Source: a bacterium (GTDB lineage: Bacteria; Verrucomicrobiota; Kiritimatiellia; UBA8416). Taken from it: a stretch of 45,559 bases of DNA. The notes under the pieces are model-generated. The model was given only the letters and a program-made list of their open reading frames with translations. It ran no database searches and was not told where the DNA came from. Location of the stretch: assembly GCA_020048935.1 (NCBI GenBank), contig JAIFLS010000012.1, positions 1 through 45,559 on the forward strand, given 5' to 3'. Positions 5,629 through 44,346 of this stretch are shown in pieces (the stretch's first letter is position 1; each line of letters opens with the position of its first letter). The translations under genes were made by a program, and so were the position numbers.

Positions 5629-6117
5629 ATGGCGACAATACTCATCGGAATAGGTGGAGTTGGCGCGTCGTGTACCCCCGGCGATATTCTCAAGACAATG
5701 GCGCTGGGTTCATGCGTGGCCGTGGTTCTTCTCGTTCCACAGACGCGGTGCGTGGGCATGGTGCACGTGGCGCTGCCGGATTCTGCGCTGGATGAAAAGA
5801 AGAAGCTGCTGGTGCCGGGGCATTTTGCCGATACGGGCGTTCCTGCATTATATGACGAAGTCTGTCGTGTTGGCGGGCGGGTGGCGATGCGGGATGTGTA
5901 TGTCAAGATCGCGGGGGGGGCCAACGTGCTGGGGGCGGCGTCGATGTTTGATATCGGGCGACGCAATGTACTGGCGGTGAAGAAAGCCCTTTGGATGATG
6001 GGCTCCGGGCCGATGGCCGAGCATGTTGAGGGCAATATCAGCCGCACGGTGACGATCAGTATCGATGCGGGAACGGTTGAACTCTCTTCGCCGTCGAAAG
6101 GAGTCTGGATATTATGA
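5629..6117 (+). CDS. cheD: Chemoreceptor glutamine deamidase CheD
   Basis: ALGSCVAVVLL ... GMVHVALP give the Cys/His catalytic context. The size is ~160 aa and the position is directly after cheB. Confidence 0.85.
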   Translation: MATILIGIGGVGASCTPGDILKTMALGSCVAVVLLVPQTRCVGMVHVALPDSALDEKKKLLVPGHFADTGVPALYDEVCRVGGRVAMRDVYVKIAGGANVLGAASMFDIGRRNVLAVKKALWMMGSGPMAEHVEGNISRTVTISIDAGTVELSSPSKGVWIL

Positions 6118-6962
6118 ATCTTGAGCTTAAGGATGCGGTCAAGGCGATCAAGCCGTTGTCCCCGGCGCTGGTCACGTTGCTAGGCGTCACTGCTTCTGCG
6201 GAGCATTCGCTCAATGATGTGTTGAAGGTGATTCAATTCGATTCCGTCCTAACCGCGAAGCTCTTGCAGGCTGCCAATTCTGCGGCGTTTCGGCGTTCAC
6301 AGGAAGTGGAGTCGGTGAGTATGGCTGTCACGCTTCTGGGCGAGCGGTTTGTGGTCGGAATGGCAATGGATTTGTGTTCGGATGGTTTTTTCGAACAACC
6401 GTTGGCTGGGTACGAGAGTGCCGCTGGCGATTTGTGGCGGCACAGTATCAAGACGGCGTTGGCCGCGCGACTGGTCTGCCGGTATGCGCGTGTGCCGGTT
6501 GACAGCAATCAGGCGTTCACGGGGGGGATCCTGCATGATATTGGCAAAGTGGTGCTGTCGACGTTTCTCGAGGGAGCGGCGAGGGGGATGGCGTTAGCCG
6601 CGTTGGAAGGGCATTTTAGCTATCTTGAAGCGGAGCGCGAGAAGTTGGGTGGGGATCATTGTGAAGCGGGGGACGCTCTGGCGGTGCAGTGGCGGTTACC
6701 GGCTTGTTACCGTGCTGTCATTGCCTGGCATCACTCGCCGGATGGGGCCCCGGAGGCGCTGGTTCCTCTGGTGTATGCCGTTCATCTCGGTGATGCCTTG
6801 GCCATGATGAGTGGTGCCGGGACCGGATCCGACAGTTTGCTGTATCCCTTGAATCCTCGGCATCAGGATTTTTTTGATCTGAGTTCGGAGAGCGTTCAGC
6901 GAGTGTTGCTGGATTTGGAGAATGAATTTGCCATGATAACTGATTCGATGGCGTCAACGTAG
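6114..6962 (+). CDS. HDOD-domain protein (paralogue 1 of 4)
   Basis: Motifs are VIQFDSVLTAKLLQAANSAAF, VESVSMAVTLLG, LWRHSIKTA and GGILHDIGKVVL. An ATGA overlap links it to the cheD stop. Confidence 0.85.
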   Translation: MNLELKDAVKAIKPLSPALVTLLGVTASAEHSLNDVLKVIQFDSVLTAKLLQAANSAAFRRSQEVESVSMAVTLLGERFVVGMAMDLCSDGFFEQPLAGYESAAGDLWRHSIKTALAARLVCRYARVPVDSNQAFTGGILHDIGKVVLSTFLEGAARGMALAALEGHFSYLEAEREKLGGDHCEAGDALAVQWRLPACYRAVIAWHHSPDGAPEALVPLVYAVHLGDALAMMSGAGTGSDSLLYPLNPRHQDFFDLSSESVQRVLLDLENEFAMITDSMAST

Positions 6963-6980
6963 GGAATGGGAGGGAAGACC

Positions 6981-7379
6981 ATGAAGAAAGTTCTGATTGT
7001 GGATGATTCGGCGACGGCCCGGATGTTTGTCCAGCGCTGTCTTGAAATTTCCCGGGCGTTTGAAGGTGCTGTATATATCGAGGCCTCGACCGGAGCGGAG
7101 GCGATGCAGCAGTTACAACAACATCAGGGTCAAATCGACGTGGTGTTTACCGATCTGGTTATGCCTGAGATGGATGGAGAATCGCTGGCTCGTCATATCA
7201 TAGCCAGTCCGCGGTATCACGACATTCCGATCGTGTGCATTACCAGCGCGGGGAATGAGGCCAAGGAGAAACAGTTGCTGGCTATTGGGGTTCGGGCGGT
7301 TGTAAAAAAGCCTGTTTCGCCGGCCAAACTGGCAGAGGTGCTGCACGCTTTGCGCCACTCTGAAAGCGAGTCTGTATAA
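6981..7379 (+). CDS. CheY-like single-domain response regulator
   Basis: KVLIVDDSATARM ... VFTDLVMPEMDG ... CITSAG ... VKKPV are receiver motifs. GGGAGGG lies 5-6 nt upstream of ATG 6981; the track start is 6966. Confidence 0.85.
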   Translation: MKKVLIVDDSATARMFVQRCLEISRAFEGAVYIEASTGAEAMQQLQQHQGQIDVVFTDLVMPEMDGESLARHIIASPRYHDIPIVCITSAGNEAKEKQLLAIGVRAVVKKPVSPAKLAEVLHALRHSESESV

Positions 7380-7396
7380 ACGGTAACGAGGTCAAA

Positions 7397-7906
7397 ATGT
7401 GGGATGATCTAAAGAAGACTAAGCCGCTGCCGCCGGAGGCGGTTCATGCCGAGGCTGGACGAAGCGAGAAAATTGCCGTTCTGGCGAAGGTCCGTGCGTC
7501 CCTGCGTCAATCGCTTGAGGATATGTTGTTCCTGCCGGTGGCTGAAGAGGGCATGTTCATGGCGGAACTCCCCGTTCTTAGCCCAATTGCAGGCACGGTA
7601 TCCATCCTGATGACCGAACCCCAGGCACGCGCCATGGCGCTAGGTTGTTATGCCGTTCAGCCGTCTGATCTGACGAGAGATATGGTGCAGGATATGGTGG
7701 CTGAACTGGTAAATACCGTTGCTGGCAATCTGGTCGCGTCGTTACTAAGGTCTGATCAGTTGTTCTCGCTGGGGCTTCCCAGTGTAACGATCTGCAATCA
7801 CATCCGGCATGATCATCCGCAGGCAACGTTCTATATTCGGTTGGGCAACGACGTCTTTCAACTTGTAATCGCGGGAGATGATCTGCTTGGATGCATTTTT
7901 GGCTAG
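7397..7906 (+). CDS. cheX: CheX-type CheY-P phosphatase (paralogue 1 of 3)
   Basis: The CheC/CheX/FliY active-site motif D-x3-E-x2-N is present as DMVAELVN. The conserved Pro lies 22 residues after the Asn (LGLP). The size is ~165 aa and the gene is adjacent to a CheY-like gene. Confidence 0.65.
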   Translation: MWDDLKKTKPLPPEAVHAEAGRSEKIAVLAKVRASLRQSLEDMLFLPVAEEGMFMAELPVLSPIAGTVSILMTEPQARAMALGCYAVQPSDLTRDMVQDMVAELVNTVAGNLVASLLRSDQLFSLGLPSVTICNHIRHDHPQATFYIRLGNDVFQLVIAGDDLLGCIFG

Positions 7907-11558: not shown

Positions 11559-11909
11559 ATGCATGATGTGCAGATCGATCAGCTTCGCGTGGGTGATGTG
11601 GTTGCCGGCGATGTGCGCGATGTGTCGGGGAAAGTGCTTGTTCGTAAAGGCCTGGTCCTGACGGCCCGGTATTTGCGCGCACTACGGATGTGGGGGACGG
11701 AAACCGTTGCGATTGATGGCGAGGATCAATCCGCCCCGGCGCCAGCGGTGACGATTTCGCCGGCGGAGGAGGCGCAGGCACGGTCAGTGCTTGAACGGCG
11801 GTTCCTGCTTGCTCCGGTAACGCATCCGGCGATGGCCCGCCTTTTTGAGCTCAGCTTGAAACGGCAATTTCTGGCATGGCATGCCGAGGCGGGACATCAT
11901 GAAATTTGA
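11559..11909 (+). CDS. Small hypothetical protein (116 aa)
   Basis: The ORF is in operon context, 25 bp after the upstream stop, and it overlaps the HDOD start by 11 bp. The N-terminus IDQLRVGDVVAGDVRDVSGKVLVRKGLVLT...LRMWGTETVAID is vaguely like the N-terminal region seen on some HD-GYP/HDOD-associated proteins, from memory only. Confidence 0.45.
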   Translation: MHDVQIDQLRVGDVVAGDVRDVSGKVLVRKGLVLTARYLRALRMWGTETVAIDGEDQSAPAPAVTISPAEEAQARSVLERRFLLAPVTHPAMARLFELSLKRQFLAWHAEAGHHEI

Positions 11910-12756
11910 ATCGGCTGACGACCTTGTTGCCAACGTGCAGACGATCCCTTCCCTGCCGGCGGTGTTTGACCGGATTAATAAGGTTGCCAACCAGCCCTCG
12001 GCCGCGCTTATGGATGTGGCGGGGGTTATCAGTGAGGATGTCGGACTGAGTTCACGACTATTGAAGCTGGTTAATAGTGCCTATTTCGGTTTTCCCTCGC
12101 GTATTGAAAGCGTGACGAAAGCATGTGTGATCGTGGGCACGCGGCAAATCCGCCAACTTGCATTGGCGACGTCGGTTGTCAACGTCTTCAAATCCGTGCC
12201 GCCGGATATTCTGAATATGCAGATGTTCTGGCGGCACAGCGTCGGATGCGCCATGGCCGCCCGCACCGTGGCGATGATCGGGGGTGCCCAGGATGTTGAG
12301 AGCCATTTCGTGCTGGGGCTGCTTCACGATGTCGGACGGCTGGTCATGTTACAGACGATGCCGGATGAGACCGCGCGTGTCATCCGTGAGTCATACGACG
12401 CGAATTGCCTGACACATGACCTGGAGCGGCGCCGGTTCGGATTCACGCATGCGGATGTGGGCAGTGCGCTCTTGAAACGCTGGGGGCTGCCCCCGGTTGT
12501 GGTGGAGGCGGTAGGCCGGCATCATACGCCGGTTGAGGCGCCGTGCAACCAGCACGAGGCGGCTTGCGTCCATTATTGTGATATTGTGGTGCATGCACTG
12601 GGTATCGGCCAAAGCGGGAATCCGATGGTACCGCCGATGGATGAAACCGCCTGGGATGTGCTTGGTCTTGAACCCGAGGCTGCCGATGCGGTGGTTGCGC
12701 AGCTTGACACGCAGATTGAGGAGCTTGCCGACCAGTTTTGCGGGGGTGCGCAGTGA
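11899..12756 (+). CDS. HDOD-domain protein (paralogue 2 of 4)
   Basis: Motifs are [54 protein letters not shown] and [14 protein letters not shown] 11899 is preferred over the track start 11881. Confidence 0.85.
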
Positions 12757-15066: not shown

Positions 15067-17676
15067 ATGCACTCAAATACTGTCACGCTTGATGATATCC
15101 GCGAGTGGGCTGGCCAAGCAGCGGGTGAGTTCATGCTCCTCGGTCCCTCGGATTTGCAGGGGCTTGCGCGCCTGGTCAAATCCCTGCAACAAAAAGCCTC
15201 TGAGTGTGCCGTTGCTGAGAATGCTGAGAATGTGCGCGCTTATGCCGATTCGCTGCTCAGAGCATCGGGAACGCTCAAGGCAATCATATTGAATGAGGCT
15301 CCTGATAAGGAGGCTGCCTTGGACACGGTTGCCGGTGTGCTTGATCAGGGGCAATCGCTTGGGTTGCATCCGGAGCGGGGCGGTCGCGCCAAACAGGACC
15401 CTGCGGTTTCGCAGGATGCGGCGACGGACACCACTGCCTCCGCCGCAACGAAAGGCGAATATGCGCCCTGGGTGGATGATGAGATTGTCGCCGCGTATGT
15501 CGAGCAGCAGGTGGCGGTGTTGCCTGAGATGGAGCAGCAGATCCTTGCCTATGAATCGCAACCGGATCCGGCCTTGGTTTCGGCGCTGCGACGCACGATT
15601 CATACCCTGAAGGGAGAGTCGGGGGTCGTCGGCGCCATGAATGTCGAAAAGGCTTGTCATCGGCTCGAGGATTACCTGAATGAGTCGACGATCGCGATGG
15701 CGACCGACGTGCTGCTGGCGGCGATCGACTGGATCGGTAATGCCGTGCGTTCGTTTGGCACCAGCGGGGAACAGGTTGATCCAGCCCCCGTCCTTGCCTT
15801 GTTCGAGGGGAATGATTCGTTGCAGAAGGGGAACGACGAACCGGAGGGCGAAGCCGTCGTCCCGACCGCGACCGTCCCGATGGATGCCCCCGTGTCGAAA
15901 GCGCCCGCCACCACGGTTCCTATTTCCGACCGCGACCTGGCCAATGATTTCGTGACTGAATCCCAGGAACATTTTGAAGCTGCCGATGAGAATCTGCTAG
16001 TTCTCGAGAAAGACCCGACCAATAAGGAATCGATCGGGGCTGTTTTCAGGGCGTTCCATACCATCAAGGGGGTTTCCGGCTTTCTCGGGTTAACACCTGT
16101 CGGGGAGCTTGCGCATGCGGCGGAAACGTTGCTCGATGAGATTCGCAAAGGCAAGCATTCATTTAAGGGGGGGGCCGTTGAAGCCACATTTAACGCGCTT
16201 GATCTTTTAAAGGTTATGATTGGTGATTTGCACGTTGCGTTGGAAAAGAATACGGATTTTCCCGTACGCCCGGAGGTCGAGTCTAGTATCAAGGTGCTTC
16301 GGGCGATTACTGAACGGAAAGAGCCTGATATGCCTGATGCTGGCTTGCCGCCCGCCGTGGTGCCGGTCGCGGAACCTGTCGCCATAAAACCAACCGTGGA
16401 GCGAGGACAGCCTGTATCGACTGAAGCGACTGCGCCGAAGGCACCGGAACACAAGCACAAGCCTGCTGCTGAAACCAAGGCGGCAGGGGATGCTGCCGCC
16501 AAGGCCACGGGGGAAGCGGGCGGCACGATGAAGGTGGATGCGAGCCGGATCGACCTGCTGCTGGACACGATTGGTGAACTGGTGATTGCGGAGGCGATTG
16601 TGGCTGGCGATCCGGATATCCAGGCCATCAAATCGCTGAGGCTTGAGAAGAATCTTGCATTGCTTGGCAAGATTACGCGGTCCCTGCAGGATATGGGAAT
16701 GTCGATGCGTCTCGTTCCGATTGACCCTGTTTTCCGGAAAATGGCCCGTCTGGTGCGTGATCTTTCGCATAAGTCAGGGAAGAAAGTTGATCTTAAGATC
16801 GAAGGTGGTGAGACTGAGATTGACAAAAGCATGGTCGACAAGCTTGGCGATCCGCTTGTTCATATGATTCGGAACTCAATGGATCATGGTCTTGAATCTT
16901 CGGAGGATCGTTTGGCGGCTGGAAAGCCCGAGGTCGGTGTAATTACGTTGCGGGCGTATCATAAGGGTGGCAGCATACAAATCGATATCGAGGATAATGG
17001 CCGTGGCTTGAATCGCGAGGCGATTGTGAACAAGGCCATTGAGAGGAATCTGATCCGCAGTGGCGAGGGAATGTCGGATCAGGAAATCTTCGCTCTCATT
17101 TTCGAGCCTGGCTTCTCGACTGCAGCCAAAATCACAGAAATATCGGGACGCGGGGTTGGTATGGATGTGGTTAGGCGCAATGTCGAGTCACTCCGTGGTA
17201 ATGTCATCATCCGGTCAACGCCCGGAGAGGGTTCTGTTTTCACTCTAGCGCTACCGCTGACAACAGCCATCATTGATGGATTGCTTGCCAGGGTCGGTGC
17301 GGAGATCTTTATCCTGCCAACGCTCTCGGTTCTGGAATCCTTCCGCCCCTTGGATGGCCAGATCCACCCAGTGGGAGGGCAGGGTGAGGTTGTGTCATTT
17401 CGTGATATGCTACTTCCGCTTTACCGTTTGTCCGCGATTCTTAATGTGCCGAATGCCCATTCCGATCCTTGCCAAGCGATTATCATGGTGATTGAAGATT
17501 CCGGCAGATACTGGGGCTTGATGGTTGATGAGTTGCTTGGTCAGCAACAAGTGGTCATCAAAAGTATCGGGGACGGGGTTGGTGTGGTGCCTGGCATTGC
17601 CGGCGCCAGTATCCTGGCCGATGGACGTCCAGGACTGATTCTTGACACAGCCGGCATCATTCGTTTGGTTTCGTAG
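15067..17676 (+). CDS. cheA: Second CheA-type histidine kinase, again with two HPt (P1) domains
   Basis: The HPt motifs are TIHTLKGESGVVGA (His codon 15601-15603) and AFHTIKGVSGFLGL (His codon 16057-16059). Further motifs are MKVDASRIDLLLDTIGELVI, HMIRNSMDHGLE, DNGRGL and GRGVGMDVV. A CheW-like C-terminus is present. Confidence 0.93.
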   Translation: MHSNTVTLDDIREWAGQAAGEFMLLGPSDLQGLARLVKSLQQKASECAVAENAENVRAYADSLLRASGTLKAIILNEAPDKEAALDTVAGVLDQGQSLGLHPERGGRAKQDPAVSQDAATDTTASAATKGEYAPWVDDEIVAAYVEQQVAVLPEMEQQILAYESQPDPALVSALRRTIHTLKGESGVVGAMNVEKACHRLEDYLNESTIAMATDVLLAAIDWIGNAVRSFGTSGEQVDPAPVLALFEGNDSLQKGNDEPEGEAVVPTATVPMDAPVSKAPATTVPISDRDLANDFVTESQEHFEAADENLLVLEKDPTNKESIGAVFRAFHTIKGVSGFLGLTPVGELAHAAETLLDEIRKGKHSFKGGAVEATFNALDLLKVMIGDLHVALEKNTDFPVRPEVESSIKVLRAITERKEPDMPDAGLPPAVVPVAEPVAIKPTVERGQPVSTEATAPKAPEHKHKPAAETKAAGDAAAKATGEAGGTMKVDASRIDLLLDTIGELVIAEAIVAGDPDIQAIKSLRLEKNLALLGKITRSLQDMGMSMRLVPIDPVFRKMARLVRDLSHKSGKKVDLKIEGGETEIDKSMVDKLGDPLVHMIRNSMDHGLESSEDRLAAGKPEVGVITLRAYHKGGSIQIDIEDNGRGLNREAIVNKAIERNLIRSGEGMSDQEIFALIFEPGFSTAAKITEISGRGVGMDVVRRNVESLRGNVIIRSTPGEGSVFTLALPLTTAIIDGLLARVGAEIFILPTLSVLESFRPLDGQIHPVGGQGEVVSFRDMLLPLYRLSAILNVPNAHSDPCQAIIMVIEDSGRYWGLMVDELLGQQQVVIKSIGDGVGVVPGIAGASILADGRPGLILDTAGIIRLVS

Positions 17677-17723
17677 ACAGCAAACGGAGCGGCAGGAACG
17701 CACACGAGATATAAGGTTCAGGT

Positions 17724-18212
17724 ATGCGAATTATAAAGGATCCCGTATTGGACGGGTGGGAATTGGCCGAGAGTGACGAGGACACACGGATCCTGCCAAG
17801 CGGGCCCTTTGTGCCATGCAAGCCGGATCGCATTCTGGTTGTGGATGACGAACAGTCAGTGCGCAGTGCCACGATACGGATACTCCGGCAGGAACTGGGC
17901 GGTGCTTATGCGTATGACGAAGCGATAAACGGCCAGGATGCGGTCACGGTGTTCATGCGCGAGCATCATAAGGTGATTCTGCTGGATTTATTGATGCCGG
18001 TCCTGGGTGGCAAGCAGGCGGCGCATCAGATTCTTGATTTATGTGCGGAGTCGCAATGGGAGACACCCGCGATTATCTTTCGTACCGGCTATGCTCCGCC
18101 GGGGGATGTCCGGAATCTCGTTGCCTGCGATCCGGCCCATTGCCTGTTGCGCAAACCGGTGCGCAATCAAACGCTGGTCAGGGCCGTGCGGGGACGACTG
18201 GGACAGGATTGA
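17724..18212 (+). CDS. Response regulator receiver protein with a ~35-aa N-terminal extension
   Basis: ILVVDDEQSVRS ... ILLDLLMPVLGG ... FRTGY ... LLRKPV are receiver motifs. Confidence 0.75.
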   Translation: MRIIKDPVLDGWELAESDEDTRILPSGPFVPCKPDRILVVDDEQSVRSATIRILRQELGGAYAYDEAINGQDAVTVFMREHHKVILLDLLMPVLGGKQAAHQILDLCAESQWETPAIIFRTGYAPPGDVRNLVACDPAHCLLRKPVRNQTLVRAVRGRLGQD

Positions 18213-22895: not shown

Positions 22896-24530
22896 TCACT
22901 GGGGGAGGGGGGGCGCATCCGTGCGCTTCTGAAGGACGGTGCATATTGCCGATTGGAGGCGTCCTTGCGTGATCGGTTTGGACACGACCAGGTCGACGCC
23001 TGGGATTTCCAGCCCCCTGGCGTTGATCAGATCGCCATACCCGGTCACCAGGATGACCGGCATATCAGCTTTTATACGTTTTGCCCGCGTGGCGACCACG
23101 TCACCGCTCATCTCCATCATCGCCCGGTCTGTCATTACCAGATCGAATGTCCCTGCTGCCAGCCGCGCAAGCCCGGTCTCGGCATCCTCGAATATCTCGA
23201 CGTCGTGTCCTTCCGCCTCGAGAAAGCGTTTGAGAACCTGTAGCGAGGCCGCATCATCGTCGATGACAAGAACACGCAGGAAGGGAATCTCGATCAGGGG
23301 GGGGGGCGTCTTGCTGACTTTCGGGGTTCTGCTTTCCGGCAGCGAGATCGTCACGCAGGTCCCATGTCCCTCGCGGCTCTCGATGGTTATATCGCCGCCA
23401 TGCCGGCGCGCAATGTTGCAGCACATCGCCAGGCCGAGTCCGGACCCGTTTTCGCCCTTGGTCGAGAAAAACGGTTCCATGCAGCGTGCTGCGGTTTCCG
23501 GCGACATGCCCGCACCATCGTCCGACACGCTCAGGTGAATCATCGCATTATCCGCACAGGCGCTGCTGATCCGTATCGTGCCCTCGTGGTCGATGGCATG
23601 TGCGGAATTAATCACGAGGTTGATCAGCATCTGATGCAATTGCGATTCGCTGGCGGACACGTCGGGCGTCTGGCCGATATCGTTGATGATCCGTATGCGT
23701 TTCCCTTCCGCCAGCCAGCCCGTGAGCGTCTGCTTGATAACCTTGTCAACCAGTGGGCGCAGCGCGACGGGCGCGACCGCCCGCGGGGCGTCATCCGAGT
23801 AGAATCCGCGTAGGCGCTGGACAACCGATTGCGCATCCCTAGCGGCCGAAAGCACGGTGTCCAGTATCTCGATCTGCTCCTGCGAGCCGCCATCGGTTTT
23901 TATCTGCATCAGCAGATAGTCGGTTAATCCGAGAATCGGCATGAGGGCGTTATTGAAGTCGTGTGCAATACCGCTGGCCAGTTGCCCCAGGGCGTTCAGG
24001 CGTTCCTGCCGTTCGATTTTCGCGTGGGTCATGCGTACGCTCTCAAGCGCGGCGGTCAACTGGTCGTTGCTCGCCTGCAGGGCCTTCGTGCGTGCGGCCA
24101 CCAGGTCCTCCAGGTCGTGCAGGTAAGCCGCCTTTTCCTGTTCAAGCTGTTTGCAGCGATCATCGGTTGCCTTGATTTTGGCCGCCTTCTCGACGGCACG
24201 ACACAACACGTCGTCAGGGGTCGGTTTGATCAAGTAGTCCGCGGCTCCGTTCCGAACCGCCTCCGCCGCTCCGTCCAGGGTCGGCGCCCCGGTCATCATG
24301 ATTATTTGGGTGGCTAATCCGCGTTGACGGACGGCCTTGAGCAGTTCGATCCCGTCATCGCCGGGCATCACAATGTCCGTCAGGATGACATCGACGTCGT
24401 GTTGCAGTAGTATACCTATGGCCTCTGCGGTGCTTTCCGCCGTTACCACCTGGTGGTTATCCTTCTGGAGGCGTTTCTGCATCATCAGGCGCATCGACAC
24501 TTCATCATCAACAACTAATATAAACGCCAT
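22896..24530 (-). CDS. REC-HisKA-HATPase-REC sensor kinase
   Basis: ATG 24530 is preceded by AGGAGCGTGAT; the track start 24635 adds 35 aa with no RBS. Motifs are ILVVDDEVSM ... ILTDIVMPGDDG, then SGIAHDFNNALMPI, INLVINSAHAI, DDGAGM and GSGLGLAMC, then VLVIDDD ... VMTDRAMMEMSG. Confidence 0.85.
   Translation of the reverse strand: MAFILVVDDEVSMRLMMQKRLQKDNHQVVTAESTAEAIGILLQHDVDVILTDIVMPGDDGIELLKAVRQRGLATQIIMMTGAPTLDGAAEAVRNGAADYLIKPTPDDVLCRAVEKAAKIKATDDRCKQLEQEKAAYLHDLEDLVAARTKALQASNDQLTAALESVRMTHAKIERQERLNALGQLASGIAHDFNNALMPILGLTDYLLMQIKTDGGSQEQIEILDTVLSAARDAQSVVQRLRGFYSDDAPRAVAPVALRPLVDKVIKQTLTGWLAEGKRIRIINDIGQTPDVSASESQLHQMLINLVINSAHAIDHEGTIRISSACADNAMIHLSVSDDGAGMSPETAARCMEPFFSTKGENGSGLGLAMCCNIARRHGGDITIESREGHGTCVTISLPESRTPKVSKTPPPLIEIPFLRVLVIDDDAASLQVLKRFLEAEGHDVEIFEDAETGLARLAAGTFDLVMTDRAMMEMSGDVVATRAKRIKADMPVILVTGYGDLINARGLEIPGVDLVVSKPITQGRLQSAICTVLQKRTDAPPLPQ
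23297..23306 (-). repeat. Poly-C(10) on the coding (minus) strand, encoding TPPPL
   Basis: Ten consecutive G on the + strand were counted at 23297-23306. The tract lies in the linker between the ATPase core and the C-terminal receiver. Confidence 0.9.
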
Positions 24531-24826
24531 ATCACGCTCCTGAGGCAACCAGTATCCGCCGCTTGTCAACTTGACCCCGTGATACCCAGAGTCAACAAGT
24601 GATTCCAGAGTAATACAGAAGTTGAAAGGGCGCAAGCCGGAACTCGTGTGAGCAGCGATTCGCGATTCTTACGATGGAGTCTTCCCGAGTCCATCCTGCA
24701 CGGTTGCGAGAATGGACTCGAACGCGATGGTCTTGGGGAGAATGATCTCGTCGGTTCCGACCTGGTTGCGCCGCGTGGCTTCCTTGTTGCTGACCAAGGC
24801 GGTTTTGTCCGCCACCGCGATTATTA

Positions 24827-25501
24827 TCACCGATTGTTACCCAGGACGTGGGAGGGGGCAGCGGGTTGAACCGATGACAGCATGTCCTTGTCAGCGAGGT
24901 AGACGGCGATGTCGCTGCGATTCCAGTCTTGTTCGCGCATGACGATATCCTGTGCATGCTTGATATCGCGGACATCCTGGTACTGGCCGTTGCTGGACAT
25001 CCAGAATGTTCCGTTATGGCGGCCGATGACGATGGCGTGGGCTTCATTCTTGTTTTTGGCATTGAGGATATACATGCTGGCGTCCAAGCCGCGAGCTAAG
25101 CAGATATCCCGGACTGTGGCTGCGAAATCCTCGCAATCGCCCAGGTGCCGGTTCCAGGTCTCCAGGCTGGTTTGCCAGTGATCGGTGGTGTCCGCGGCGT
25201 AACGGATGCGGGAACTGACGGCCTCGCAGATTGCCTGTGGCGTTGTTGCCGTTACGTTGCGGGCAACCCATGCCGTGACGGGGGGACGCGGGCCGTTGGA
25301 TTGCGGTTCCGCCGCTGACAAGGGAAACGCATTCAACGGCTGCTGCGGTGTTCTTGCCTCTGCATGGCGGGCTTTGTAGGCAGCCCAGGCCGCGCGGAAT
25401 TCCGGGTCTTCGGCGATGGACCGGTTTGAGGCGCTGGCGGGGATCGCGATCAGGATGACACTGGCGGCAATGATTTGCAATGTTCGTCCAGGTTTCTGCA
25501 T
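24827..25501 (-). CDS. Secreted transglutaminase-like / papain-fold cysteine peptidase (BTLCP, LapG-like family candidate)
   Basis: A signal peptide is present (MQKPGRTLQIIAASVILIAIPASA/SN). The Cys motif is GDCEDFA and the His motif EAHAIV lies 32 aa later. The third catalytic residue is not confidently placed. GGAG lies 8 nt upstream of the ATG. Confidence 0.5.
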   Translation of the reverse strand: MQKPGRTLQIIAASVILIAIPASASNRSIAEDPEFRAAWAAYKARHAEARTPQQPLNAFPLSAAEPQSNGPRPPVTAWVARNVTATTPQAICEAVSSRIRYAADTTDHWQTSLETWNRHLGDCEDFAATVRDICLARGLDASMYILNAKNKNEAHAIVIGRHNGTFWMSSNGQYQDVRDIKHAQDIVMREQDWNRSDIAVYLADKDMLSSVQPAAPSHVLGNNR

Positions 25502-25546
25502 CGTTTAGACTCCGTGTTTGCGTGTTGCTTGACGGAGTCTTCTATC

Positions 25547-25561
25547 GCAGTGATCGTGCCA
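25547..25561 (-). promoter_or_regulatory. Sigma-54 type -24/-12 promoter candidate (TGGCAC-gatca-CTGC) reading toward the peptidase gene
   Basis: The minus strand reads TGGCACGATCACTGC against the consensus TGGCAC-N5-TTGC, with GG and GC at the correct spacing. It lies ~45 nt upstream of ATG 25501 with an SD in between. An NtrC-type activator gene is immediately upstream. Confidence 0.5.
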
Positions 25562-25649
25562 ATCTCTTTATTATTTCATAAGATGTTGTTTTACAGTGCG
25601 ATATGATTATTAGTCTGGATGATCCGGAAAAAATACAGCGCATCAGATG

Positions 25650-25665
25650 TGTCCGCAGGCGGACA
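25650..25665. promoter_or_regulatory. Perfect dyad TGTCCGC-ag-GCGGACA, candidate enhancer (UAS) for the sigma-54 promoter
   Basis: The arms are 7 bp with a 2-nt spacer, which is too tight a loop for an RNA hairpin. The dyad lies ~90-105 bp upstream of the -24 element. An AT-rich stretch (25561-25640) separates the two. Confidence 0.35.
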
Positions 25666-25697
25666 GGTCAATGGTCATGTGTTCGAATCCGTTCAGG

Positions 25698-27137
25698 TTA
25701 GCTGGATCCGATATCGTGCGCGGCCATCATGCGGTAGAGCTTGGGTCGGCTAATGCCAAGGAGTCGGGCTGTGGCGGCAACGTTACTGTTGGCGGTGGCC
25801 AGCGCCCGCCGGATAAGGGTTGCTTCCGCCTCTTTGAGGTTAAGTGGCAAATCGCCGTCAGAGAACCGTGCGTCTGCGGCGGGAGGACTGCTGGCCTGCG
25901 GGCTCTCGGTAAGCGGGCCCTCGCAGTGGATATGGTTGGCGTAAATGGTTCCGCCACGGCACAGAATCAGGGCGCGCTCAACGATGTTCCTTAATTCGCG
26001 GACATTTCCAGGAAAATCATGTTTCGCCAGTGCTGCCAATGCCGTGTCATCAAATTCAGAGGGTGGAATCCCCATTTCCGTGGATATCAGTTTATTGAAA
26101 TGGTGTGCAAGAAACGGTATTTCCGTTCTCCTCTGCCGTAGCGGGGGGAGGGTGATGGTATAGCCAGCCAACCGGTAATAGAGATCGGAGCGAAATTTGC
26201 GGTTGGTGATTTGGTCCGCGATATTGGCATTGGTGGCCGCCACAATGCGCACGTTAACCTGTCGAGCCTTCGGGGCGCCAACCGCTGTGACGGCCCCATC
26301 TTCCAGAACCCGGAGGAGTTTTGTCTGCATTTCGAGGGGCATATCGCCAATCTCATCAAGAAAAAGGGTCCCGCTATCGGCAAGCTCGAAGCAGCCTTTG
26401 CGATCGGCAACTGCACCGGTAAAGGCCCCCCTGATATGCCCGAACAGGGTTGATTCAGCGAGTTCGGCCGGCACCGCCGAACAATTGATCGGCACGAATG
26501 GATTACGTGCTCGTGCACTGCCGAAATGGATGGCTCGCGCGATCAGTTCCTTGCCCGTGCCGCTTTCGCCTGTGATCAGGACCGAAGTGGCGGGCGACTT
26601 GCAGATGAGCTGGACATCATGCATCACCCGCTTCATGGCCGGTGACTGGCTGACCATGCCGGAAATCCCGCTGCGTTCGCGTTCCTGCCCGGATAAAAAC
26701 GAGACTTGAGCAGCCAGCAGATCGCGTTCCTCTGCGACCTGCCGGTAACGCAAGGTCCGGCTGATGGTCTGGGTGATCATATCCTTATCAACGGGTTTCT
26801 CGAAAAAATCAAACGCGCCTAGTTTCAGTGCCTTGATGGCGTCCTCTTTGTCGGCGGTTCCGGTAATGACGATCACATCGGTCTGAGGGCTGATTTTCTT
26901 GGCTTTTTCCAGGACATCATGACCGGACAACCCCGGCATGCAAAGGTCGGTGATCAGGATATCAGCGGGCGTGTGCGCCAGGGACTCAAGGCAGGCGATC
27001 GGATCGGTATACACCGTTGAATGGCAGTCAAGCAATTTAAGATAGGATCGGATCGTAATGCCAATGCGCTGGTCATCATCCAGAATCACGACATGGACCT
27101 GGCGCGATAGGGATTTCGCTTCAACTTCCATGGGCAT
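25698..27137 (-). CDS. Sigma-54-dependent response regulator (NtrC family: REC + AAA+ + Fis-type HTH)
   Basis: The REC part reads VVILDDD ... ILITDLCMPGLSG ... FFEKPV. The Walker A is GESGTGKELIARAIH. The sigma-54 contact loop GAFTGA is intact, and DEIGDMPLEMQTKLLRVLE follows. The C-terminal HTH reads NVAATARLLGISRPKLYRMM. Confidence 0.92.
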   Translation of the reverse strand: MPMEVEAKSLSRQVHVVILDDDQRIGITIRSYLKLLDCHSTVYTDPIACLESLAHTPADILITDLCMPGLSGHDVLEKAKKISPQTDVIVITGTADKEDAIKALKLGAFDFFEKPVDKDMITQTISRTLRYRQVAEERDLLAAQVSFLSGQERERSGISGMVSQSPAMKRVMHDVQLICKSPATSVLITGESGTGKELIARAIHFGSARARNPFVPINCSAVPAELAESTLFGHIRGAFTGAVADRKGCFELADSGTLFLDEIGDMPLEMQTKLLRVLEDGAVTAVGAPKARQVNVRIVAATNANIADQITNRKFRSDLYYRLAGYTITLPPLRQRRTEIPFLAHHFNKLISTEMGIPPSEFDDTALAALAKHDFPGNVRELRNIVERALILCRGGTIYANHIHCEGPLTESPQASSPPAADARFSDGDLPLNLKEAEATLIRRALATANSNVAATARLLGISRPKLYRMMAAHDIGSS

Positions 27138-27175: not shown

Positions 27176-28704
<1,529 letters not shown>

Positions 28705-28713
28705 ACGGGGTCT

Positions 28714-29193
28714 CTAACTGAATTTGAGCAGCGCGACCACCGGATTGCCATCTGTAAGCAGCTTTACAGCTCCAGGTAACTGCTGAAAGCGCATCACGTC
28801 ATCTGGCTTGATCGCGGTTGCTGAAGGAGCCGAAAGTAAAAACGTGGTTTCTACCCCGAAGAGGGTTGCCGTCAGTGCCCCGGCCACGATATTCGACCAT
28901 TCCTTGATGGCGTCTATCGTTTCCGTATCGCCAACGTCTTCAGGTTCGAGGCCAAGTACATTTGCCGCGATTTCCTTTGCCTGTGCAACCGGCACGGCAA
29001 CCTGCAATTCGCCGCACTGCGCGCTGCCGGTGAAGGCCACCACGGCTGATATATAATCATCGGCGGGGAGGGTGGGGGGGGCATCACCACTGTCGATTTC
29101 GGCAAAAACAAAGGCGAAATCCTCCAACGTGCCAACCAGTGTCTGTTTTAGCGAATCAAGGATCGCATCATCTTGTACAGGTTTCATCTCCAT
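28714..29193 (-). CDS. cheX: CheX-type phosphatase (paralogue 2 of 3)
   Basis: D-x3-E-x2-N is present as DAIKEWSN, with Pro 22 residues after the Asn (LSAP). The size is ~160 aa. Confidence 0.6.
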   Translation of the reverse strand: MEMKPVQDDAILDSLKQTLVGTLEDFAFVFAEIDSGDAPPTLPADDYISAVVAFTGSAQCGELQVAVPVAQAKEIAANVLGLEPEDVGDTETIDAIKEWSNIVAGALTATLFGVETTFLLSAPSATAIKPDDVMRFQQLPGAVKLLTDGNPVVALLKFS

Positions 29194-29248
29194 GCTTGGG
29201 CTCCTGGCTGAGTTTCTCCGGAACGGTGCGCTTGCTTGGGTTCACCCG

Positions 29249-30121
29249 TTAAATGAGTGACATCAGGATGTCCGACTTGGTCGATTCCTCGTGGACTTCA
29301 TCCACGATAAGGGATATATCCGATACGGATAAGCCAAGGCGCTTCCAGACGGCTTGCACACATGCCGGATCAGCAAGATCTCCACCGTCACCGATCTTTT
29401 CGCGATTGCAGATGTAGTTGGCCATGTGGCAAAGGGAGGTCGCTTCCCAATACTCGGGTGGTGCTGAATCGGGATCGTGGTGCCAGAGTATCGGCAGCAT
29501 CAGGTCTTCTGTCATGTTCCATTTGCCGCAAAGCCACCCGCCGAGTGCTGCATGATCGATTCCGGCCGCCTCCAGCTCTGCGCGGTAAAGGCTCATTGGC
29601 GTTGAGCTGGCCAACTCAAGCGCGGCATGGAACTCATCGGCCATGAATTGATCCATGATCAGCTTGCCGATATCGTGGAGCAGGCCGACAAGTCGCAAGG
29701 ACTCGTTGGTATGTCTTTTCTTCAAATTCGGTTTCGCATGATTATTCACGACACAAGCCGCAATCCCTACGCTGATGGAATGCCGCCAGAATTCATCGCG
29801 GTTGAAAGTGCCGCCTTGCTGATTACCGAATGCAGAGAAAATGGACGTGGAAAGGGCAATGTTATTGGTGGCGGTCAACCCCAGGCGGGCCACCGCCTGC
29901 TGCACGGACTGTATTTCTACCCCGCCCGCATACAGGGATGAGTTCACGACCTTGAGGATCCGTGCGGTAATCGCCGGGTCGTCCTCGATAAGGTGTGCAA
30001 TCGATTTTGCATTTGAATTCGGGTCGCGTACGGCAGCCGACAGCTTGTTCATAACGAGCGGTAGTGTCGGCAGGTTGCGTACGCCGTTCAGGATATCGAT
30101 GATTTCGTTAATGCTTTTCAT
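29249..30121 (-). CDS. HDOD-domain protein (paralogue 4 of 4)
   Basis: Motifs are LPTLPLVMNKL, LIEDDPAITARILKVVNSSLY, IQSVQQAVARLG, FWRHSISVG and GLLHDIGKLIM. Confidence 0.85.
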   Translation of the reverse strand: MKSINEIIDILNGVRNLPTLPLVMNKLSAAVRDPNSNAKSIAHLIEDDPAITARILKVVNSSLYAGGVEIQSVQQAVARLGLTATNNIALSTSIFSAFGNQQGGTFNRDEFWRHSISVGIAACVVNNHAKPNLKKRHTNESLRLVGLLHDIGKLIMDQFMADEFHAALELASSTPMSLYRAELEAAGIDHAALGGWLCGKWNMTEDLMLPILWHHDPDSAPPEYWEATSLCHMANYICNREKIGDGGDLADPACVQAVWKRLGLSVSDISLIVDEVHEESTKSDILMSLI

Positions 30122-30165
30122 TAGCAGCCGCAGCCTTTCTGATGGGATTGCGTATGAGTTGTCAA

Positions 30166-30567
30166 TTAATCTGTTGTGGTGTTCTCGGGAGTCTTGCCAA
30201 GCAGGCGCGACATGATATCGCGAATGCCTTCGGGCGTAAAGGGTTTGTTTAGATATTCACGCACACCCCGGGCCTTGAGCTCGCGCATGCGCATCTCGCT
30301 GCGGTCGGTGCTGACAATGACCACAGGTGTTTCCTTTAATTTCCCTTGACGTTCCATTTCCTCGACCATCTCGACCCCGTTCATCACCGGCATGTTAAGG
30401 TCGGCAAACATCAGGTCAATCCATTGGGCATCGAGTATGTCAATGGCTTCACGCCCGTTGGTCGCCTCGAAGATCTCACCGATATCCTCGCCGGTCATGC
30501 GTACCGCACGTCCGACGACTTTGCGTACAATTGCGGAATCATCAACAATTAAAATATTGTAAGCCAT
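30166..30567 (-). CDS. cheY: CheY-like response regulator
   Basis: [12 protein letters not shown] ... MFADLNMPVMNG ... IVSTD ... YLNKPFTPE are CheY-like motifs. The protein is 133 aa. Confidence 0.85.
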   Translation of the reverse strand: MAYNILIVDDSAIVRKVVGRAVRMTGEDIGEIFEATNGREAIDILDAQWIDLMFADLNMPVMNGVEMVEEMERQGKLKETPVVIVSTDRSEMRMRELKARGVREYLNKPFTPEGIRDIMSRLLGKTPENTTTD

Positions 30568-30596
30568 CGGATGTGCTCCTGTATTCTAGCAAGTAT

Positions 30597-31484
30597 TTAT
30601 GTCTTGTCGCATTCGGGTTGGATGATCGAATCCCATTCATTCATTTTCTCAAGCGTGATGCTGGCAACCTGCTCAATATCCTGGGAGCGTAGCCCCAGCC
30701 TGACCGCCCCATCTTCGGTGACGATATACCGGAATCCGTCAATCCCGTCACCCACGCCAAGACTATATACCAGCGTATCGGCTAAATGCACCATTAAAGC
30801 GGTTTCCCGGTACTCCGTGGCTAAATTCGGGTGGTGGTGGTGGTTCACAATGGCGATCAACTCCTCTGGGAAGGCCCACTTTTCCATCAACCATGCGCCC
30901 GCCTGTGGGTGACTGACGCCTAGAATGTTGATTTCAATCTGATCAAAGGCGGCGTCGGAATCACGCAATTGGGCGTCAAATTCACGGCGGTTCTCCTGTA
31001 CGAACGGGTCTAGCACGATTTTTCCCATATCATGCACGAGCCCTGCCGTGAAAAGCATTTCCTTCGGGTGACGTCCAAGGCTTAAAGCCAGTGTTTCGGC
31101 GGTCAGGGCGACGCCGATCGAATGCTTGAGCAGCGTATGCGGTTCCAAGTCGTAGCCGTCGAGTTTCATGGCCAGGTGTGAGGCAAGCCCCTGTGCCATG
31201 ATTATGCGAAACAGCCGTTTCGAACCCAGTCGCACAAACGCCTGTTGCAGCGAATCGATCCGCTGTGATCCTGAAAACGCGGCAGAATTGACGGCTTTGA
31301 GGATATTCATGGTAATGCCGGGATCGAAGCGTACGCTATCGGCAAGTTGTTTGAAATCCAGTTCCGGATCGTTTGCGTGTGCCATCAGGTCCTTGAGCAT
31401 GGCTGGCATCCGAGGATGCACATCCACGGCCTTGTGAATGCGTTCGAGCGTGATGTCCTTGTCGTGTTTTGTTTTTTTGATCAT
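30597..31484 (-). CDS. HDOD-domain protein (paralogue 3 of 4)
   Basis: Motifs are SVRFDPGITMNILKAVNSAAF, IDSLQQAFVRLG, LLKHSIGVA and AGLVHDMGKIVL. Confidence 0.85.
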   Translation of the reverse strand: MIKKTKHDKDITLERIHKAVDVHPRMPAMLKDLMAHANDPELDFKQLADSVRFDPGITMNILKAVNSAAFSGSQRIDSLQQAFVRLGSKRLFRIIMAQGLASHLAMKLDGYDLEPHTLLKHSIGVALTAETLALSLGRHPKEMLFTAGLVHDMGKIVLDPFVQENRREFDAQLRDSDAAFDQIEINILGVSHPQAGAWLMEKWAFPEELIAIVNHHHHPNLATEYRETALMVHLADTLVYSLGVGDGIDGFRYIVTEDGAVRLGLRSQDIEQVASITLEKMNEWDSIIQPECDKT

Positions 31485-31487
31485 GCT

Positions 31488-31967
31488 CTAGAACTCACTT
31501 TCCACGCCGGAGGACCGAAGTGTGCAGCGCCCGCTGCCGATTTCGAGCCTTAACGTTCTTGATAAGGAGCCGCCGACCTGCTCGGCCTTGATCATCAATC
31601 CGTTTTTCCACAGGATCTTACGAAGCACCGTGTGGTTACGCTCCCCGATTCGGAAGAGGTTGCTGTTGTCCAGAATCCGTGCGCAACCGGCGACCTTTAT
31701 TATGGCGCGCGATCGGTTTACGCCGAGATCGAAGAGCATGGTGAGGAATTTCATCATTCCTGAATCAACAAACATAAACGGCTTCACTTCCGCTTTCTGG
31801 GGGTCAACGCTCGCGATCGGCAGCATGCAGTGAATGATGCCGCCTACCTGCACGCCGGGGTCGTATATGGCAACGCCTACGCATGAGCCCAGTGAGTAGG
31901 TGACCAGGACGTCATCGGGTTTATTCGAAACCTTACCGTCGGCTATATCAATTATTATCTGACTCAT
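31488..31967 (-). CDS. cheD: CheD deamidase, second copy
   Basis: Motifs are SLGSCVGVAIYDP and GGIIHCMLP. It overlaps cheR by 4 bp. Confidence 0.85.
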   Translation of the reverse strand: MSQIIIDIADGKVSNKPDDVLVTYSLGSCVGVAIYDPGVQVGGIIHCMLPIASVDPQKAEVKPFMFVDSGMMKFLTMLFDLGVNRSRAIIKVAGCARILDNSNLFRIGERNHTVLRKILWKNGLMIKAEQVGGSLSRTLRLEIGSGRCTLRSSGVESEF

Positions 31968-32782
31968 TTTATGTACACCGACGGTTTAACGCTGCGGAAA
32001 TTCCCCAGCATGCCCGATAAGCTTTCCGCATGCCCGACCATCAGGATGCCGCCGGGTTTCAATAAGCGCCATATCTCATCGAGCAGTCCTTTCCTGACTT
32101 TGTTATCGAAATAGATCATGACATTGCGGCAGAATACAATATCGAACGGGCCTTTCATCGGATATGGCGGTCGCGCGAGATTCAAGCGGGCAAAGGAAAG
32201 CATGCGGCGCAGTTCATCATTCACGACATAGCTGCGGTTGGCGGCGTCTGCCGGTTCTTTCCTGAAGAACCGGCGGGTCATGGATTCGGGCACCTTTTCG
32301 AGATGCCGCGGTTCGTAGCGACCGGCTTTGGCAACATCAAGCGCGCGCGTGGAAATGTCCGTGGCCAGAATCTTGAAGTCGCTAACGTCGGGAATCGCGG
32401 CTCTTGCCGTCATGGCGATGGTATAGGGTTCCTCTCCTGTCGAGGAGGCGGCGCACCAGATGCGATACGAGCGCTGGCCGCCGCCGTGCCATTGCTGGAG
32501 CAGCTCGGTGAGCAACTGGAAGTGATGTTCTTCACGAAAGAAGTAGGTGACGTTGGTGGAAATGGCGTTAAGCATCTCGACAAGCTCGTCGCCGTCCTTA
32601 TCGTCCTTTACCAGACGATAATACTCCTCATAACGGCCAATCCCGAGCGCTCGCATGCGTTTCCCCATGCGCGAGGCCACCAGCGCTTCCTTCTGCGGAC
32701 CCAGATGGATGCCTGCCTTGTCGTAGACAAGCTCGCAAAACCGGCTGAACATTTCGGCACTTAAATTTTCATTATTATTCAT
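31964..32782 (-). CDS. cheR: CheR methyltransferase, second copy
   Basis: Motifs are TNVTYFFRE, IWCAASSTGEEPYT, FCRNVMIYFD and GGILMVGHAE. Confidence 0.93.
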   Translation of the reverse strand: MNNNENLSAEMFSRFCELVYDKAGIHLGPQKEALVASRMGKRMRALGIGRYEEYYRLVKDDKDGDELVEMLNAISTNVTYFFREEHHFQLLTELLQQWHGGGQRSYRIWCAASSTGEEPYTIAMTARAAIPDVSDFKILATDISTRALDVAKAGRYEPRHLEKVPESMTRRFFRKEPADAANRSYVVNDELRRMLSFARLNLARPPYPMKGPFDIVFCRNVMIYFDNKVRKGLLDEIWRLLKPGGILMVGHAESLSGMLGNFRSVKPSVYIK

Positions 32783-44331: not shown

Positions 44332-44346
44332 TGGCACTGGATCTGC
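44332..44346 (+). promoter_or_regulatory. Sigma-54-like element TGGCAC-tggat-CTGC upstream of flgL (geometry problematic)
   Basis: It has the same TGGCAC-N5-CTGC core as the candidate at 25547-25561. The -12 GC is only ~14 nt from the flgL ATG, which implies a near-leaderless transcript. Confidence 0.25.

Follow-up and report, generated by a model that had tools for sequence, protein, structure and literature searches.

Promoters of the NtrC type that are assisted by integration host factor (IHF), among them glnHp2, nifH and Pu, join an activator with receiver (REC), AAA+ (GAFTGA-bearing) and Fis-type helix-turn-helix (HTH) domains to GG and GC doublets at −24 and −12, to dyad upstream activating sequences (UAS) at about −120 and −150 and to an AT-rich, IHF-like bend site in front of the promoter. 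The same layout, with candidate UAS and IHF sites, is found in a 45,559-bp stretch of a Kiritimatiellia genome (contig JAIFLS010000012.1; hereafter the window), in the 196-bp gap that separates the stop codon of a gene for a sigma-54-type enhancer-binding protein (EBP; stop at 25700-25698) from the ATG (25501) of a gene for a secreted protein resembling cysteine peptidases. This gap is very probably an enhancer-dependent promoter dedicated to the protease-like gene. It differs from the described promoters in its UAS, which is composed of four TGTYC-type half-sites in a nested palindrome, and in its target, a secreted peptidase-like protein.

The downstream part of the gap, together with the start of the gene, can fold into a hairpin in which the Shine-Dalgarno (SD) sequence is sequestered. 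This arrangement resembles the fold-back inhibition of the IS10 and IS50 transposase mRNAs. A related element has been described for the E. coli glnKp sigma-54 promoter, where a CT-rich anti-SD centred near −4, which the promoter itself does not transcribe, silences translation of read-through RNA (Levy et al. 2017, bioRxiv 10.1101/086108). Common to glnKp and the window is an anti-SD just upstream of the transcription start, which is left untranscribed by the gene's own promoter and is predicted to pair with the SD only in read-through RNA. Here, however, the helix of the putative insulator is longer (10-20 pairs versus motifs of 3-5 nt), reaches from the −12 element as far as the start codon and is kept with covarying arms across distant lineages.

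The product of the gene shares with LapG and the bacterial transglutaminase-like cysteine proteinases (BTLCP; Peptidase_C93, PF06035) a signal peptide, a transglutaminase-like fold, the GDCED(F/Y)A active-site/Ca2+-site motif and the catalytic His, and departs from them in having WxSSxG instead of ILDN, an N-terminal AIAEDPEFRAAW motif and a dedicated sigma-54 activator. The CPR-C4 cysteine protease (7ob6/7pjo) gave a comparable fold-search score and the highest query-normalised template-modelling (TM) score (0.39-0.41), at an identity of 12-14% and without a sequence-level match. Regarding the regulatory genes, the Che3-CrdA/CrdS system of Myxococcus xanthus, in which a Che-like pathway feeds an NtrC-type activator that has a separate kinase (PMC3147164), likewise encodes an NtrC-like EBP together with a Che-like cluster (CheR, CheB, CheD, CheX) and a separate histidine kinase (HK). 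In contrast, the kinase of the window is a soluble REC-HK-REC hybrid, and in other loci the pair of EBP and protease-like gene also occurs without Che genes.

A search of 5.8 billion sequences returned 14 close homologues of the 224-residue protein. Their loci, with further loci from genome and metagenome scans, served as comparison loci (L-numbers); all elements of the promoter region are given in minus-strand orientation. Among named relatives, those closest to the EBP and the protease belong to metagenome-assembled genomes of the Planctomycetes-Verrucomicrobia-Chlamydiae (PVC) group; relatives are annotated as Lentisphaerae, Kiritimatiellia and Verrucomicrobia, and the lineages are uncultured.

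Phylogenetic footprinting supported the enhancer-dependent layout of UAS, bend or IHF region, −24/−12 element and SD that had been proposed for the window in the original prediction. The ordered layout of UAS, IHF-like site, −24/−12 element and hairpin precedes the homologous gene in about 15 independent related loci, with a TGTYC-N6-GRACA-centred UAS about 100 bp upstream of −24, WATCAA-N4-TTR, TGGCAC-N5-YTGC and the SD-covering hairpin. All homologous loci examined that offered enough upstream sequence have TGGCA[CT]-N5-NTGC at a distance of 28-60 nt before the start codon, among them loci lacking an adjacent EBP gene and loci with an unrelated or divergent gene upstream (L007, L008). Anchored on −24, the UAS block has the consensus GTGTTCAC-nC-TGTCCGC-ATGT-GAnCAC-ATT-GAACA and stands at a fixed offset in 12 loci. 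The perfect dyad of the window, which had been put forward as the activator site, is thus present and conserved, but it is only the inner pair of this larger four-half-site UAS. About 25-35 bp upstream of −24, most loci show a match or near-match to the IHF consensus WATCAANNNNTTR, which is perfect in L001 (AATCAACATCTTA), a locus 91%-related to the window; matches or near-matches at the same offset were seen in L004, L006, L007, L008 and L011, examples being CATCAATTGGTTA in L004 and CATCAACCACTTA in L008.

The sigma-54 promoter, the hairpin and the layout are kept even in a distant clade (L014, L015, L099, L101) whose proteins are 31-38% identical to that of the window. The upstream repeats of this clade stand in the same place and differ in sequence (TTCTCA/TGAGAA), and the adjacent activator is 33-34% identical in the loci that extend far enough (L014, L015, L099). 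A different activator coming with different repeats is the pattern expected of activator-site co-evolution.

In the window itself, all originally predicted elements (dyad, AT-rich stretch, −24/−12 match, GGAG and inverted repeat) were present (Table 1). The GG and GC doublets of TGGCACGATCACTGC lie exactly 10 nt apart, and its −24 part is a full match. By convention, the GG of a sigma-54 promoter is placed at −24 and the GC at −12, and the predicted start position was derived from this numbering. The AT-rich spacer shows the lowest G+C of all 80-bp segments in the 45.6 kb (mean 56%) and contains an IHF-like site, AAACAACATCTTA, that was absent from the original prediction. Equally absent from it was an imperfect distal dyad, TGAACGGATTCGAACA, which belongs to a direct-repeat family (22-mer, 73% identical, spacing 30), is present only in the window and L001, and is a candidate second EBP-dimer site.

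Taken by themselves, the motifs of the window are weak evidence and carry modest weight. TGGCAC-N6-TGC occurs three times versus 0.74 expected, a count reached by 6 of 100 shuffles; perfect palindromes with 7-bp arms number 17, so that the dyad alone is unremarkable; and a short degenerate motif such as WATCAANNNNTTR in AT-rich DNA is weak evidence. The elements gain their weight because the same order and spacing recur before homologous genes in unrelated neighbourhoods. Several details weigh against the promoter assignment: in the window, the outer half-sites of the UAS are degenerate, the IHF-like site has one mismatch to the consensus, the −12 element reads CTGCG rather than TTGCW, with TGGCACGATCACTGC as a whole having two mismatches to TGGCAC-N5-TTGCW, and rpoN is absent from the window. 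The second dyad at −152 may compensate for the degenerate outer half-sites. Scanning the gene's strand between the EBP gene and the protease-like gene in the window, L004 and L009 revealed neither a sigma-70-like promoter nor a terminator; one weak terminator candidate was seen in L094. The dyad and the hairpin were also considered as terminators and ruled out, as they are without a U-tract and the scan gave none on the gene's strand. We consider it highly likely that the gap contains a genuine EBP/sigma-54-dependent promoter for the protease-like gene, and the promoter is well supported as real and conserved, although in design it follows a common regulatory pattern, here ahead of an uncharacterised gene.

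The gene upstream of the gap, a sigma-54 activator gene in the original prediction, encodes a complete NtrC-class activator (GAFTGA, HTH_8), and its orthologues travel with the protease gene. Pfam analysis showed Sigma54_activat (3.6e-66, 222 bits), Response_reg, AAA_lid_14 and HTH_8 domains; the orthologue alignment shows no variation in GAFTGA, in the Walker A/B motifs or in the Asp residues of the receiver, and the HTH region is conserved. The best NCBIfam scores remained far below the cutoffs, and the EBP is not an equivalog of any named EBP. Most of the related loci have an EBP orthologue (53-69% identical) adjacent or close by. Orthologues of 64-69% identity immediately precede the protease gene in L004, L006, L009, L094/L174 and L173; others are located one gene away from it in L011, convergently downstream of it in L013/L096 (53%) and 1.5 kb away in L176 (54%). 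The neighbourhoods of these EBP-protease pairs are otherwise unrelated.

In L175 (6413-6705; Lentisphaerae), an EBP orthologue (55%) occurs without a peptidase gene, and TGTGTTC repeats plus a sigma-54 promoter, TGGCACGGCAGCTGC, precede a gene for a HATPase-only, kinase-like protein; this arrangement suggests that the wider activator family controls other targets. In L008 (858-6313), a peptidase homologue with sigma-54 promoter and UAS has no adjacent activator and adjoins a caspase-like Peptidase_C14 gene, with a CHAT-domain gene nearby.

Downstream of the peptidase-like gene lie genes for a REC-HisKA-HATPase-REC kinase and for two PAS/PocR hybrid kinases. The REC-HK-REC kinase is 61%, 55% and 56% identical to kinases whose genes follow the protease gene in L007, L011 and L093, respectively, and orthologues of 40-42% identity adjoin the EBP in L013, L175 and L176. 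It is a candidate kinase for the EBP. The protease and kinase genes are separated by a 296-bp spacer, for which an origin as a degenerate copy of the REC gene that occupies this place in L011 was ruled out, there being no similarity. In L001/L002 (from the 91%-related organism), the kinase gene (at about 6970-7430) has suffered two internal deletions and is left as a fragment of 152 residues; activator, promoter and peptidase gene are intact there.

The original prediction had further tied the activator to Che genes. The EBP gene starts 38 nt past the CheB stop codon, and the Che-like operon probably ends with it. In L173, CheA, REC, EBP and protease genes are contiguous in this order, with CheA and REC being 56-57% identical to the CheA and REC proteins encoded elsewhere in the window (Table 1). 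The EBP-protease pair without any Che genes was found in L004, L006, L009 and L174, and Che linkage is restricted to two lineages. The link is real in this lineage, and reinforced by L173, but the module also occurs without it, and the REC-HK-REC kinase is the more widely conserved partner. We conclude that, judged by gene content across the loci, the conserved unit is EBP, protease-like gene and soluble REC-HK-REC kinase, and that the Che link is lineage-specific and not the core of the module.

Analysis of the protein encoded downstream of the promoter confirmed the signal peptide (residues ~1-24, ending ...IPASA/SN), and the GDCEDFA (Cys123) and HAIV (His155) pattern of the original prediction, and gave a transglutaminase-like fold closest to that of LapG. 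An N-terminal hydrophobic signal sequence is present in all family members and is followed, in the close homologues, by the conserved AIAEDPEFRAAW motif. Across 13 close and 43 diverse representatives, C123 and H155 are invariant, and the GDCED, His155 and WxSSxG elements are invariant or nearly so. The subfamily comprises ~102 clusters (50% identity) at E<=1e-30 and is widespread in metagenomes.

The assignment to LapG/Peptidase_C93, in contrast, was not borne out. The Pfam scores for Peptidase_C93 (PF06035; 26.0 vs a cutoff of 27) and Transglut_core (20.1 vs 23) stayed below threshold, NCBIfam gave no match for the protein, and the LapG model CystProtLapG gave none at E<=0.01; a Pseudomonas BTLCP homologue reached 232 bits on CystProtLapG, below the 320-bit cutoff of that model. 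Canonical BTLCPs carry (I/L)LDN with the catalytic Asp ~17 residues after the His, whereas the family of the window has SSxG there: the stretch aligned with the LapG catalytic Asp reads WMSSNG, in which S169 and G172 are invariant and S170 nearly so. The best match of a sequence profile search in the PDB was LapG (4u65_E, E = 0.012), aligned on GDCEDYA, and the best fold matches were LapG (4u65, 4fgq, 4fgp, 4fgo), CPR-C4 (7ob6, 7pjo) and 3isr, with TM-scores of 0.31-0.41. This implies a separate LapG-related subfamily, predicted to have a LapG-like fold with the Cys/His and the Ca2+-site motif kept. Three observations weigh against a LapG-like enzyme, namely that an Asp at the LapG catalytic-Asp position occurs in none of the family sequences inspected, that the AlphaFold model has a mean predicted local distance difference test value of 66.8 and is confident only for residues ~80-200, and that the TM-scores to LapG are 0.31-0.41.

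The product may not be a LapG-type adhesin-releasing protease but another transglutaminase-fold enzyme, such as an enzyme that processes a signalling component or an amidase of the cell-wall or isopeptide kind, or else a non-catalytic binding protein; we regard this as a serious possibility that falls just short of probable. It accords with the replacement of the LapG Asp by SSxG, with the pseudomurein endoisopeptidases and CPR-C4 among the fold neighbours and with the gene's surroundings, where every conserved neighbour is a signalling protein. The invariance of LapG's Cys, His and DCED Ca2+-site motif argues, however, for LapG-like catalysis, and we hold it somewhat more likely than not that the product is an active peptidase. 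An adhesin-releasing enzyme of the LapG type would be expected to have LapA- and LapD-like partners, yet LapD-like, LapA-like and type I secretion genes were found neither in the 45-kb window nor in the ~20 related loci searched. In the lack of Lap partners, the motile/sessile-switch reading is conjecture. A literature search for sigma-54 together with transglutaminase-like cysteine proteinases found no paper.

The inverted repeat in front of the gene had been suspected to straddle the predicted transcription start. This was confirmed; it poses no problem for the promoter call and fits a read-through insulator. In the hairpin formed by the read-through RNA, the 5' arm lies mostly upstream of the predicted start, and the 3' arm covers GGAG and the start codon. 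The minimum free energy of the window hairpin was −19.3 kcal/mol (z = −4.9), with z-scores across the loci ranging from −2.7 to −7.8 against shuffled sequence. If transcription begins at the sigma-54 start, 10 of the 14 pairs are lost in the window, and the calculated probability that the SD is unpaired is 0.11 in read-through RNA versus 0.52 in native RNA; across the loci, the corresponding values are 0.10-0.40 for read-through and 0.34-0.75 for promoter-initiated RNA. In 15 of 16 loci, the SD/AUG pairs in a helix whose 5' arm falls between about −15 and +8, counted from the predicted start. A sigma-54-initiated transcript would lose 40-85% of the helix pairs, the folding energy changing from values between −8 and −25 kcal/mol to values between −1 and −12 kcal/mol.

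Pair counting was done on eight leaders of equal length, and the other lineages were assessed by per-sequence folding and a self-versus-non-self duplex test; a MAFFT alignment of all 11 leaders was set aside, as it placed the window stem one column out of register. In the ungapped alignment of the eight leaders, 84% of the cells were paired, whereas slid controls gave 32-45%. In nine pairs both bases change, a result that none of 500 shuffles reached. The untranscribed −11 to −1 segment gave a mean duplex energy of −6.2 kcal/mol with its own SD/AUG region versus −3.2 kcal/mol with the SD regions of other loci (0 of 20000 permutations). The arm sequences are unrelated between lineages, reading GACUCCGU in the window, GUCAUUCCCCGUA in L004, UCUGCUGG in L099, GAUCUCC in L013 and GUCUGCACCGAU in L014. 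Scanning 24400-25900 against Rfam at E<=1 returned no match, and the leader is not a known RNA family. Since the 5' arm would not be part of the sigma-54 transcript, the ribosome-binding site would be largely free in native transcripts. The repeat most likely insulates the gene against translation of read-through transcripts from the EBP/Che operon, and we have moderate confidence that this would be the main role of the hairpin.

Two side observations concern the hairpin region. In most loci, the −12 element (CTGCG/TTGCG) is complementary to AUGCAG, that is, the start codon plus codon 2 (in the window, 25546-25550 with 25496-25500), and with this pairing the read-through hairpin reaches the start codon; the complementarity could be coincidental, both sequences being independently constrained. 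In L009 (5990-6040), the canonical start reads ATA, and the open reading frame (ORF) is 10 residues longer, opening with an ATG that lies 2 nt away from the sigma-54 start predicted there.

Four findings speak against the insulator. The outer, untranscribed helix alone, in the close alignment of eight sequences, shows 84% pairing and three covarying pairs, a number that 94 of 500 shuffles reach; the inner 4-7 bp of the stem, which stay in the native transcript, covary best, so that the hairpin may act in the native mRNA too; the preference for folding in the sense over the antisense strand is weak (11 of 16 loci); and L009 is without an SD-sequestering hairpin. It is rather unlikely, though, that the hairpin works only in the native mRNA, with the residual 5' stem (CCGU...ACGG) stabilising the mRNA or tuning translation, for instance as a thermometer or as a target of a protein or small RNA, and with the upstream extension of the repeat being functionless. 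The inner helix kept in native RNA does show the clearest compensatory changes (pairs 16-22), and with an unpaired probability of 0.34-0.75 rather than 1 the SD is still partly covered natively. Against this, the untranscribed −11 to −1 segment shows a complementarity that is specific for the SD region of its own locus, the arms begin 3-8 nt past the GC of the −12 element in lineages with unrelated arm sequences, and the stems left in native RNA have little stability, with −0.8 to −6 kcal/mol for most loci.

The repeat could alternatively be a DNA operator at which a dimeric repressor overlapping the start controls transcription. A perfect 9-bp inverted repeat that overlaps −5 to +4, as in the window, would suit such a site, but an operator would conserve its sequence, whereas here the arm sequences are wholly different between lineages and complementarity is what is kept; in addition, the helices contain G-U pairs and bulges, and the distance between the arms ranges from 7 to 16 nt. 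We consider an operator very improbable. Equally improbable is a fortuitous −24/−12 match with expression by Che/EBP-operon read-through or an unrecognised promoter, for although the motif count in the window alone is not significant and no terminator follows the EBP gene, all homologous loci keep the motif in this position, even those with an unrelated or divergent upstream gene, and a translation-blocking hairpin would make read-through expression ineffective.

An enhancer-dependent promoter combined with a read-through hairpin and an exported LapG-related enzyme is thus the explanation that we favour overall and consider likely. Under this proposal, the REC domain of the EBP would be phosphorylated by the soluble REC-HK-REC kinase and/or, in this lineage, by a Che-type kinase. 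The EBP would bind the TGTYC-N6-GRACA-centred UAS at about −122 and a second site at about −152, and bending of the DNA in the AT-rich IHF-like region at about −50 would bring it to sigma-54 RNA polymerase at TGGCAC-N5-CTGC, where ATP hydrolysis would open the promoter and transcription would set in near 25535. The 5' anti-SD arm (CT-rich in the window, extending from the −12 element to about +4) would be outside the sigma-54 transcript, leaving the ribosome-binding site largely free, whereas RNA reading through from the EBP/Che operon would form the complete hairpin, with GGAG and AUG hidden in it, so that the gene would be translated only when the enhancer fires. The product would be exported to the periplasm via its Sec signal peptide as a DCED (Ca2+-site-bearing) Cys/His enzyme of a distinct LapG-related subfamily. 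In this scheme, phosphodonor, DNA binding by the EBP, start site, insulation and proteolysis are read from sequence, domain content and layout; the analysis itself shows the sequence elements and their conservation, the linkage of the genes, the fold and the covariation of the untranscribed arm with the SD.

Table 1. Features of the promoter region and of the associated genes in the window.
Feature	Position	Strand	Remarks
Core UAS dyad TGTCCGC-CT-GCGGACA	25650-25665	−	perfect; centre ~−122
Distal dyad TGAACGGATTCGAACA	25680-25695	−	imperfect; centre ~−152 from predicted start, 30 bp upstream of core dyad
AT-rich spacer, UAS to promoter	25561-25640	−	31% G+C
IHF-like site AAACAACATCTTA	25579-25591	−	inside AT-rich spacer
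Sigma-54 promoter TGGCACGATCACTGC	25547-25561	−	GG 25559-25560, GC 25547-25548; predicted start ~25535
Inverted repeat	25507-25515 / 25532-25540	−	9 bp, perfect
Read-through hairpin	25496-25550	−	5' arm 25532-25540 + 25546-25550; 3' arm 25507-25515 + 25496-25500
SD sequence GGAG	25510-25513	−	8 nt before ATG 25501
Secreted transglutaminase-like, cysteine-peptidase-like protein	24827-25501	−	224 aa
Cys123 codon	25133-25135	−
His155 codon	25037-25039	−
SSNG		−	aa 169-172
Sigma-54 EBP	25698-27137	−	479 aa; REC, AAA+ with GAFTGA, HTH_8
Soluble hybrid kinase REC-HisKA-HATPase-REC	22896-24530	−	Pfam domains; likely start Met36 of the ORF opening at 24635
Che-like cluster	27176-32782	−	CheR, CheD, HDOD, REC, HDOD, CheX, REC, CheB; upstream of EBP
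CheA and REC protein	15067-18212	+	CheA (two Hpt domains) 15067-17676; REC 17724-18212

The 45-kb window as a whole is a signalling and motility island. Besides two Che-like clusters, it encodes an additional CheA and several hybrid kinases, and it contains the flagellar export genes as far as fliA. Four HDOD-domain proteins are scattered through both Che-like clusters (6114-6962, 11881-12756, 29249-31484), and a fragment of a methyl-accepting chemotaxis protein fused to a hemerythrin domain is located at the window edge (3-866, plus strand). Just past the stop codon of the peptidase gene (24795-24825, minus strand), a GGCGG-ACAAAA-CCGCC hairpin without a U-tract holds a copy of the UAS half-site GCGGACA. 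A second good −24/−12 match, TGGCACTGGATCTGC, was found at 44332-44346 on the plus strand, just upstream of a flagellin/FlgL-like gene whose likely ATG (44360; MRITPD...) is separated from the predicted start of transcription by only 2 nt. The sigma-54 transcript would thus be almost leaderless, unless the match is due to chance.

Compared with the original prediction, this second analysis adds an activator-peptidase-kinase cassette, a probable activator motif and evidence for a selected read-through insulator. The result is a defined regulon with an uncharacterised activator, a probable DNA motif, a single conserved target and a probable kinase. Promoter-encoded insulation has so far been known mainly from a synthetic library and E. 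coli glnKp, and the present, probable case is a natural one with phylogenetic support. The data further delimit a new LapG-like subfamily with a different third active-site element (WxSSxG). It is conceivable, though we put it forward only tentatively, that EBP, protease-like protein and REC-HK-REC kinase make up a previously undescribed, self-contained signalling cassette of PVC-type and related uncultured bacteria, with an Asp-less LapG-related enzyme as the single dedicated output under two-layer off-control. If this is true, the two layers would be enhancer dependence and a conserved, promoter-embedded translational insulator, which would be the first sigma-54 promoter insulator shown by co-variation to be under natural selection, and such control would suggest an irreversible or costly processing step in the periplasm, for example in the commitment to a lifestyle change.

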